A stretch of 64,000 nt of DNA, from assembly GCF_003334765.1 (NCBI RefSeq), contig NZ_QOWT01000023.1. The stretch is one strand, 5' to 3'. The position numbers and the translations under genes were made by a program. The notes beneath the pieces are model-generated. The model saw only the letters and a list, made by a program, of their open reading frames with translations. It had not been told where the DNA came from and did not search any database. This stretch comes from Escherichia coli (GTDB lineage Bacteria; Pseudomonadota; Gammaproteobacteria; Enterobacterales; Enterobacteriaceae). This document shows positions 1-1,231 of the stretch, in pieces (the stretch's first letter is position 1; each line of letters opens with the position of its first letter).

Positions 1-1
1 A

Positions 2-208
2 GACGCGGCAGAAGTAAAGCGCCAGTCGCTGATTGATGCTGCAATGGCTTCCATCAGTCTGATTCAGCTGAAATTACGGGCCGGGCGGAAGCTGACGCAG
101 GCAGAAACCACCCGACTTAACGCTGTGCTGGATTACATTGACGCGGTGGAGGCAACAGATACCAGCACCGCGCCTGATGTCATCTGGCCTGAACTGCCGG
201 AGGCGTAG
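2..208 (+). pseudogene. tail fibre assembly (Tfa) protein, C-terminal fragment entering from window start
   Basis: Frame 2 translates to ...LNAVLDYIDAVEATDTSTAPDVIWPELPEA*, the characteristic Tfa C-terminus. Stop codon at 206-208. Confidence 0.6.
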
Positions 209-620
209 GCCATTCAATATCTGGCGCACTGGAAGTATCGACCAGTTCCAGTGCGTCCAGATAATCCAGCCACAAATTATATTGCACCAGTTCCTCACCT
301 TTCAGGCGACCAATCGCCGCTTTACCAGGCCATTGCTTACTGTTTATGTATTCGTTGACCTGATTAATCAATTGCTGCTTTTTCAGTTCGGCTGCGGCAA
401 TTTGTTCCTCATGAGTTGGCGGTGGAATATCAATCCATGCAGGCATTCCGTCGATGACACCTCTGTATTTTCCTTCTGGTGCTTCCTTCATAAATTCGGC
501 GGCAACAGTGTCGTCAATTTCGATTCCATCATCGGGCCATTCGCCGGATTCCTGATAAGCGATTTTAAGCTCCACAGGGAAAAACGCATTTTTATCGGCA
601 CTGAAAATATATTTCTGCAT
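180..620 (-). CDS. phage tail fibre assembly protein (Tfa)
   Basis: 146-aa ORF ending ...DTSSAPDIEWPTPPAVQAR, typical Tfa chaperone. Lies tail-to-tail with the plus-strand Tfa fragment. Confidence 0.8.
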   Translation of the reverse strand: MQKYIFSADKNAFFPVELKIAYQESGEWPDDGIEIDDTVAAEFMKEAPEGKYRGVIDGMPAWIDIPPPTHEEQIAAAELKKQQLINQVNEYINSKQWPGKAAIGRLKGEELVQYNLWLDYLDALELVDTSSAPDIEWPTPPAVQAR

Positions 621-622
621 TT

Positions 623-922
623 CTACCGTCCTATCGAAATATAACTGAATCTGTATTGCTGTGAGATATCACTGGTTGCCACACGCCACGCTGAATTACT
701 GATATGTTCAAAATTTACAGACAAAACCTGCGGGGCAGGACTCGACGGGTCTGACTGAACGGCATCAGACATAACACTGACTGAAACCATCGGCTGATTA
801 GGGAATGGTATAGGGAAGTGTCCACTGATAAAGCGGGTCGTGTTTCCTGAAAAAGTGCCAAACTGAACAATATATCCACCTGGTAGCCTGAACCATCCCG
901 AACCAGAAGCGAATGCTCCCAT
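623..922 (-). pseudogene. tail fibre C-terminal (variable) segment, fragment
   Basis: 99-aa ORF immediately upstream of Tfa on the same strand. Gly/Ser-rich tail-fibre-like sequence with no credible N-terminus. Confidence 0.45.
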
Positions 923-1231
923 ATGGTCTGCACGGGCGATGATGCCGATACAAAAATGTTTCCTCTTAATAAACCCGTGCTGATCACTGATGTGCTGACT
1001 GCCAGCGGTAAAGCGGGTGAGTCCGGTACTCTGGCCCGTTCGCTGGATGCCATCGCTGATCAGGCAAAACCCGTGACCGTTGTTGTGCGTGTGCCGCAGG
1101 GTGAAACGGAAGACGAAACCACGACCAATATCATCGGCGCTGTGACTGCTGAAGGTAAAAAAACAGGCATGAAAGCCCTGCTACACGGTGAAAAGCATTA
1201 CGGGGGCGTTGCGCCGCTGGGTGGAAGCTAA
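923..1231 (+). pseudogene. tail sheath (P2 gpFI-like) N-terminal-region fragment
   Basis: Translation MVCTGDDADTKMFPLNKPVLITDV...KPVTVVVRV resembles the N-terminal region of P2-family sheath proteins. Upstream in-frame sequence is unrelated, and the frame runs into the tape-measure fragment. Confidence 0.45.

Follow-up and report, generated by a model that had tools for sequence, protein, structure and literature searches.

At the left end of a 64,000-nt stretch of Escherichia coli DNA (the whole of which is hereafter called the window), two tail-fibre-assembly genes run into each other tail to tail, and a fibre-tip gene lies behind the second one. The initial annotation saw in this the arrangement of the host-range segments inverted by Gin, Pin or Cin, and yet it found neither an invertase gene nor a crossover site. 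Is this an invertible segment, and if so, what became of its switch? The data presented below indicate that positions 1–1231 very probably represent the right-hand portion of an invertible host-range cassette for tail fibres, of the Pin/Gin family, in a P2-like prophage and locked by deletion, and none of the results that we obtained contradicts this reading. The feature is thus a decayed instance of an already known kind of element, an ordinary genomic fossil.

Five frames were read at the left end of the window from the ORF listing and the sequence (Table 1). The plus-strand Tfa frame enters from the left edge and stops with a TAG at 206–208; its entire gene encodes 197 aa (positions 8693–9286 of the assembly L007, described below), and the product is 61.5% identical to TfaE of the e14 prophage. 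The inverted gene, Tfa', encodes a protein 56% identical to e14 TfaP. As first annotated, the two frames converge and overlap: both match PHROGs tail-fibre-assembly families and their 3' ends share 29 nt (180–208). The fibre variable segment said to lie upstream of the minus-strand copy was also recovered, since the frame running from 922 to 623 (Sv') matches tail-fibre C-terminal ends and has a precomputed Pfam match, Gp53-like_C. Of its roughly 115 variable codons, Sv' keeps the 99 at the C-terminal end; it has lost the first 16, together with the crossover site. From the logic of the operon, Tfa' and Sv' are probably silent relics in the present orientation. A search of five window fragments against NCBIfam gave no match. 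The imperfect inverted repeat at 127–270 is no crossover site; it results from a conserved Tfa C-terminal motif (LDYIDAVE/LDYLDALE) that is encoded on both strands.

Table 1. Features of the P2-like prophage remnant in the window (positions in nt) and the Pin-family crossover-site sequence.
Feature	Position	Strand	Remarks
3' end of co-oriented Tfa gene (last 68 codons and stop)	1..208	+	PHROGs tail fibre assembly / tail assembly chaperone, E 2e-27
Imperfect inverted repeat, 24 nt, 79% complementary	127-150 / 247-270		
Tfa', intact inverted Tfa gene, 146 aa	180..620 (620 to 180)	-	PHROGs tail fibre assembly protein, E 1.6e-62
Sv', truncated alternative fibre tip, 99-aa ORF	623..922 (922 to 623)	-	PHROGs tail-fibre C-terminal ends, E 8e-18 and 1e-13
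Deletion joint 1	922..924		TAT microhomology; 926 nt absent relative to E. coli H3
Sheath (FI) codons 31-117	923..1183	+	PHROGs sheath, E 4e-38; Pfam Gp18_domIII_N
Deletion joint 2	1182..1183		TA microhomology; 2,881 nt absent
Tape measure T, distal ~493 codons	1184..2666	+	492-aa ORF 1188-2666; PHROGs C-terminal half, E 3e-139
gpU	2663-3148	+	intact
gpD	3145-4245	+	intact
Ogr	4336-4554	+	intact
attR core CAGGCAACAAAAAACCCAT	4627-4645	+	overlaps 3' end of RybB sRNA gene
RybB sRNA gene	4632-4710	-	Rfam, 105 bits
Pin-family crossover-site sequence as given			TTCTCNNAAACCNNNGTTTNNGA

The region is the right end of a P2-like prophage in the E. coli chromosome. Genes U, D and ogr (2663..4554, plus strand) form the right end of the remnant and are followed by ybjL. 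The overlap of the attR core with the 3' terminator end of rybB indicates that the prophage was integrated into the end of rybB, rebuilding that gene, and the integration site is therefore the rybB terminator, beside ybjL. Outside the deletions, the late gene order V-W-J-I-H-G ... FI-FII-E-E'-T-U-D-ogr followed by att is collinear with that of Klebsiella phage 4LV2017, which represents the canonical P2 tail region (H-G-FI-FII-E-E'-T-U-D-ogr). The backbone is 88–96% identical to that of 4LV2017 over V-W-J-I, the constant part of H, FI, T, U, D, Ogr and attR; unlike the present prophage, 4LV2017 has a single H-G pair and no invertible cassette, and the homology of H to it ends exactly at the crossover site (L007 8240). 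Compared with 4LV2017, the window lacks sheath codons 1–30 and 118–390, the tube gene, E/E' and half of T. The remnant does not hold a full set of head, lysis and tail genes either: about 7.4 kb are missing by a third deletion, left of the window, where a portal fragment directly abuts gpR, and the terminase, capsid and lysis genes are consequently gone. Accessory genes occupy the P2 hotspot beside the portal fragment (L007 1–2576, about 6.5–9 kb left of the window); they include a GAPS4-type pair (PF26115 PDDEXK_GAPS4 and PF26110 GAPS4b_N), which are candidates for anti-phage defence and may account for the retention of the remnant.

We then looked at the sequence left of the window, as given by L007. 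This and L008 are independent ENA assemblies, respectively 100% and 99.96% identical to window 1–10300 (window position 1 is L007 9079). The upstream 9 kb of L007 contain V, W, J and I, followed by the genes for H (504 aa) and Tfa (197 aa), both intact. This is the conventional H-G order that the initial annotation had set against an invertible segment; H, however, carries a crossover site, and homology to Tfa and to fibres was found for the ORFs of the minus strand. The interpretation as an invertible segment therefore stands. Two tips, each with its own chaperone, thus lie in opposed orientations downstream of a constant fibre part: the H constant part, Sv and Tfa on the plus strand (L007 7179–9286), Tfa' (180–620) and the truncated Sv' (623–922) on the minus strand. 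The site within H (L007 8215–8240, 839–864 nt left of the window) is the sole Din-type site in 20 kb. As the initial annotation had stated, the window itself contains neither element: we found no Din-type site at 3 mismatches or fewer in the 64 kb, and no invertase homologue in the 64 kb or in the 9 kb to the left on L007 (tblastn, best E 2.8). A single orphan site was therefore what the suggested search of the left flank yielded, and not the invertase; in intact relatives, both 26-bp inverted sites flank the segment and a serine invertase gene adjoins it. Only one orientation was seen in this lineage, in the three places read.

The missing parts were found in relatives, which we sought by megablast in a set of 5,426 complete E. 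coli genomes and in phage records. Many P2-like prophages occupy the same ybjL site in this set, and in none of the 5,426 genomes did the two joints of the window occur, extra DNA splitting every match to 1–1183 or 922–4800. The closest relative, E. coli H3 (L003), is 99.7% identical over window 1–924 and 100% identical over 922–1183 and 1182–1500, with 926 nt of extra DNA between window positions 924 and 925 and 2,881 nt between 1183 and 1184; these joint coordinates were checked by direct display of the sequences. In H3, 24-nt inverted arms lie at 7138–7161, inside the fibre gene H, and at 8968–8991, and a gene for a "recombinase family protein" (9050–9649) falls within the missing 926 nt. 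The two 26-bp crossover sites of the relatives, TTCTCACATACCTTGGTTTGGGAGAA and TTCTCCCAAACCAACGTTTATGAAAG, are inverted with respect to each other and have the ACC-NN-GGTTT core in common with Mu gix. The right site, TTCTCCCAAACCAACGTTTATGAAAG, is identical at 25 of 26 positions to the right-hand site of e14, TTCTCCCAAACCAACGTTTATGAAAA (for e14 and Mu, the sites were taken from the genome sequences themselves). The serine invertase is 86% identical to PinE and 75% identical to Mu Gin, and it matches the sequence of the Gin crystal structure 3UJ3 with an E value of 1.4e-92.

Inversion itself was simulated in silico on H3, the segment being turned round between the central dinucleotides of the two sites. 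This fused the H constant part in frame to the minus-strand tip, with the predicted product ...LTYLGLGE/AAKRDVGTGDNQIPDMGAFASGSGW...ISIGR (stop). When the flipped junction (648 nt) was used as a query, 31 complete E. coli genomes covered at least 80% of it in a single place, and among the 20 records listed it was found end to end, in one piece, at 96.6–98.6% identity; the junction is annotated in those genomes as an intact "phage tail protein". The occurrence of the flipped junction in 31 complete genomes means that this cassette family really inverts. In NZ_CM151387.1 the junction lies about 6 kb from the ybjL-proximal tape-measure/D/Ogr block, which makes it the same ybjL prophage in the opposite orientation. 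The proposal of a Gin/Pin/Cin-type arrangement was therefore correct, relatives having the cassette, the serine invertase and the two inverted sites, and both orientations being present among them.

Among known systems, the e14 cryptic prophage of E. coli K-12 with its P segment and PinE (stfP-tfaP / tfaE-stfE / pinE) is the closest. The order is the same (constant part, tip, Tfa, inverted Tfa', inverted tip', invertase), the Tfa genes of either system share 29 nt at their 3' ends, and the similarity to PinE, TfaE, TfaP and the e14 site identifies the cassette as a segment of the e14 P-segment/Pin type, lying between G and FI. The differences are that the present cassette sits in a P2-type tail operon, and that inversion is impossible in the window, which has lost by deletion its invertase, its right site and the beginning of one tip. 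The initial annotation had compared the locus with the Mu G segment; this was right as to type, with the refinement that e14 is nearer. Mu (S/U, S'/U', Gin) has the same logic and order, and its crossover likewise falls within the codons for an L-G-L motif at the boundary of constant and variable parts. In contrast, the Mu site (TTATCCAAAACCTCGGTTTACAGGAA) is more diverged, the variable parts are about 115–150 codons here and about 320–335 in Mu, and the Tfa proteins are only some 32–35% identical, over their C-terminal thirds. Inversion of tail-fibre loci in P2-like prophages of the same host species was shown by sequencing and PCR in EPEC E2348/69 (Goldberg et al. 2014, PMC4272514). Those loci, from the same phage family, are active; the present one is a deletion-locked fossil.

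The joints account for what is missing. At joint 1 the parental sequences are CCCATAT/CCGG on the left and GGGTAT/GGTC on the right, with only TAT in common; at joint 2 they are CCCTGCTA/TCTG and ATTCTGTA/CACGG, with only TA in common. Deletion 1 (926 nt) removed the 5' end of Sv' (16 codons) and the right crossover site, the invertase gene along with the spacers on either side of it, and sheath codons 1–30. Deletion 2 (2,881 nt) removed sheath codons 118–390, the tube gene FII, E, E+E' and roughly the first 531 codons of the tape measure. The comparison with H3 supports the view that two deletions, with microhomologies of 3 and 2 nt, would explain the window exactly, and bears out the initial count of at least two, the third being the one left of the window. 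The sheath frame does begin within the gene, which entire has 390 codons; the description "mid-protein", though, is to be replaced by codons 31–117. Likewise, sheath and tape measure are fused as described, not at 1190–1230 but at 1182–1183. Deletion 2 being out of frame, the sheath frame merely runs on through 15 codons of tape-measure DNA (1184–1228) to a stop at 1229–1231. The resulting chimeric ORF (923–1231, plus strand, 102 aa) begins at joint 1 and spans joint 2. By exact-protein look-up it was found in 97 blocks of the assembly collection, on 69 contigs of which the longest is 4.9 Mb, and it is annotated as "hypothetical protein ESBG_01920 [Escherichia sp. 4_1_40B]". No intermediate with a single deletion was seen among the 5,426 complete genomes or the listed cluster members, and the 37-nt sequence across joint 1 had no exact match in species-representative genome contigs, a set that does not include this lineage.

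Several related assemblies are peculiar in this region. Strain Z1322HEC0001 has a 1,803-nt "plasmid" contig (NZ_CP148587.1, L014) that is exactly the DNA between the repeat arms (H3 7162–8967), as would be expected for the product of an unresolved invertible segment in assembly. A second "plasmid" of this strain, NZ_CP148584.1 (L001, L015; 73.8 kb), consists of chromosomal DNA (ybjL ... pflA) bounded by parts of two P2-like prophages, and both of these RefSeq plasmids look like assembly artefacts. In Escherichia sp. 4_1_40B, a member of the present lineage, the scaffold JH660541.1 (L009 1–917) begins with a small contig that is identical to window 150–924 and runs 49 nt further into undeleted Sv' sequence before an N gap. 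A second copy of the cassette, free of the deletion, thus seems to be present elsewhere in this genome and may have an invertase of its own. There is a slim chance that the orphan Pin-type site in H serves as substrate for an invertase encoded elsewhere in the genome and recombines with the sites of the second copy; if so, large chromosomal inversions or deletions between the two prophages would follow.

Other readings of the locus have to be weighed against a deletion-locked cassette. The tail-to-tail Tfa pair could be a static duplication or a mosaic joint that was never invertible, as the lack of an invertase and of a crossover site in the window itself might suggest. This is refuted by the relatives, which are 98–99.7% identical over the same DNA and have the invertase and both sites, by the flipped junctions in the 31 genomes and by the left site surviving in H, and we regard it as extremely unlikely. 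The joints could also be artefacts of assembly, made by collapsing repeats common to P2-like prophages; the region is indeed mishandled in related assemblies (the 1.8-kb and 73.8-kb "plasmids", the mis-scaffolded contig of 4_1_40B). The exact chimeric ORF, however, is on contigs from several sources, and L007 and L008 agree with the window although they were assembled independently. Since so many independent assemblies carry the joints, we rejected this reading, whose probability is close to nil.

The origin of deletion 1 is a separate matter. Serine invertases can occasionally act on pseudo-sites, and a reaction that paired the right crossover site with some pseudo-site of the sheath gene would agree with the joint loss of site and invertase; on this reading, Pin would have cleaved at GGGTATGGTCTG. 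The left breakpoint (H3 8925/8926), though, is 43 nt outside the 26-bp site (8969–8994), and neither breakpoint resembles the AAACC-NN-GGTTT core. With breakpoints outside the crossover site, a deletion made by the invertase was rejected as very unlikely; together with the short microhomologies, their position favours an ordinary illegitimate deletion. Both deletions may have arisen by slippage or by illegitimate recombination, as microhomologies of only 2–3 nt suggest. Could the deletion-locked segment still be switched by an invertase supplied in trans by another prophage? Din-family invertases cross-complement, and the apparent second cassette of 4_1_40B might be a source. Inversion by Gin, Hin or Pin nevertheless requires, besides the invertase and a Fis-dependent recombinational enhancer in the 5' part of its gene (a region deleted here), two inverted sites in cis, and one remains; moreover, the 16 codons that Sv' lost in deletion 1 make an in-frame fusion of H to Sv' impossible here. 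Switching in trans is for these reasons barely conceivable.

In the scheme that we propose, the intact element would have consisted of the fibre gene H with a 26-bp crossover site at the constant/variable boundary, followed by the variable tip Sv and its chaperone Tfa, the inverted Tfa' and Sv', the second, inverted crossover site, and a serine invertase gene just upstream of the sheath gene. Inversion would have exchanged which tip and chaperone is fused to, or transcribed with, H. One microhomology deletion would have taken the DNA from the beginning of Sv' through the right site and the invertase gene to sheath codon 30; another, the rest of the sheath gene and what follows it, with the tube gene and E/E', as far as the middle of the tape-measure gene; and a third, left of the window, the head and lysis genes. 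With one site, the invertase and the Sv' start gone, the segment would be locked in the orientation that expresses the TfaE-like tip and chaperone, the minus-strand genes being silent. The remnant lacks the head and lysis genes, the tube, E/E', half of T and the greater part of the sheath, and could therefore yield neither a phage nor a tailocin. The losses from sheath, tube and tape measure also led us to reject domestication as a tailocin.

The locus illustrates how a host-range switch can decay, a single 926-nt deletion removing the invertase gene and one crossover site and thereby locking the segment. Beyond annotation its significance is little. The joints can be used to recognise one E. 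coli lineage, as a clonal marker. In annotation, the "hypothetical protein" of 102 aa (e.g. ESBG_01920) should be read as a sheath/tape-measure deletion chimera, and the minus-strand ORFs as relics of an e14 P-segment-type cassette.

The ybjL prophage lineage has also decayed independently elsewhere, with other joints. Those of H3 are terminase-small/lysC and tape-measure/D, and its H and both its Tfa genes are frameshifted; strain F829 (L002) has a truncated invertase and a truncated sheath. The Tfa/Tfa'/Sv' cassette, 99.9% identical over 924 nt, was found in two further backgrounds (L004 and L005), namely a non-P2 tail module (GP46 / baseplate J / YmfQ type) beside the phn operon and a differently arranged P2-like prophage, indicating that it moves between phages as a module.

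Elsewhere in the window, clpA is closely followed by a minimal CRISPR array of I-F type (42409–42560), with a full repeat (42409–42436), a 32-nt spacer and a truncated repeat (42469–42488). A 15-nt piece at about 42540–42555, TGGCGGTGAGGGGGA, presumably matches the tRNA-Ser 3' end of K-12 serW; no complete tRNA gene was found in the window, and an island integrase follows the piece directly. The genomic island (about 42700–64000) contains a tyrosine integrase, a DUF3987 protein, a TOTE conflict-system primase, copies of IS66, IS3, IS200 and IS1, and the autotransporter gene espI. It also includes a group II intron domain (56423–56593) and, adjoining the IS200 copy, matches to STnc100/STnc490 (55373–55717).
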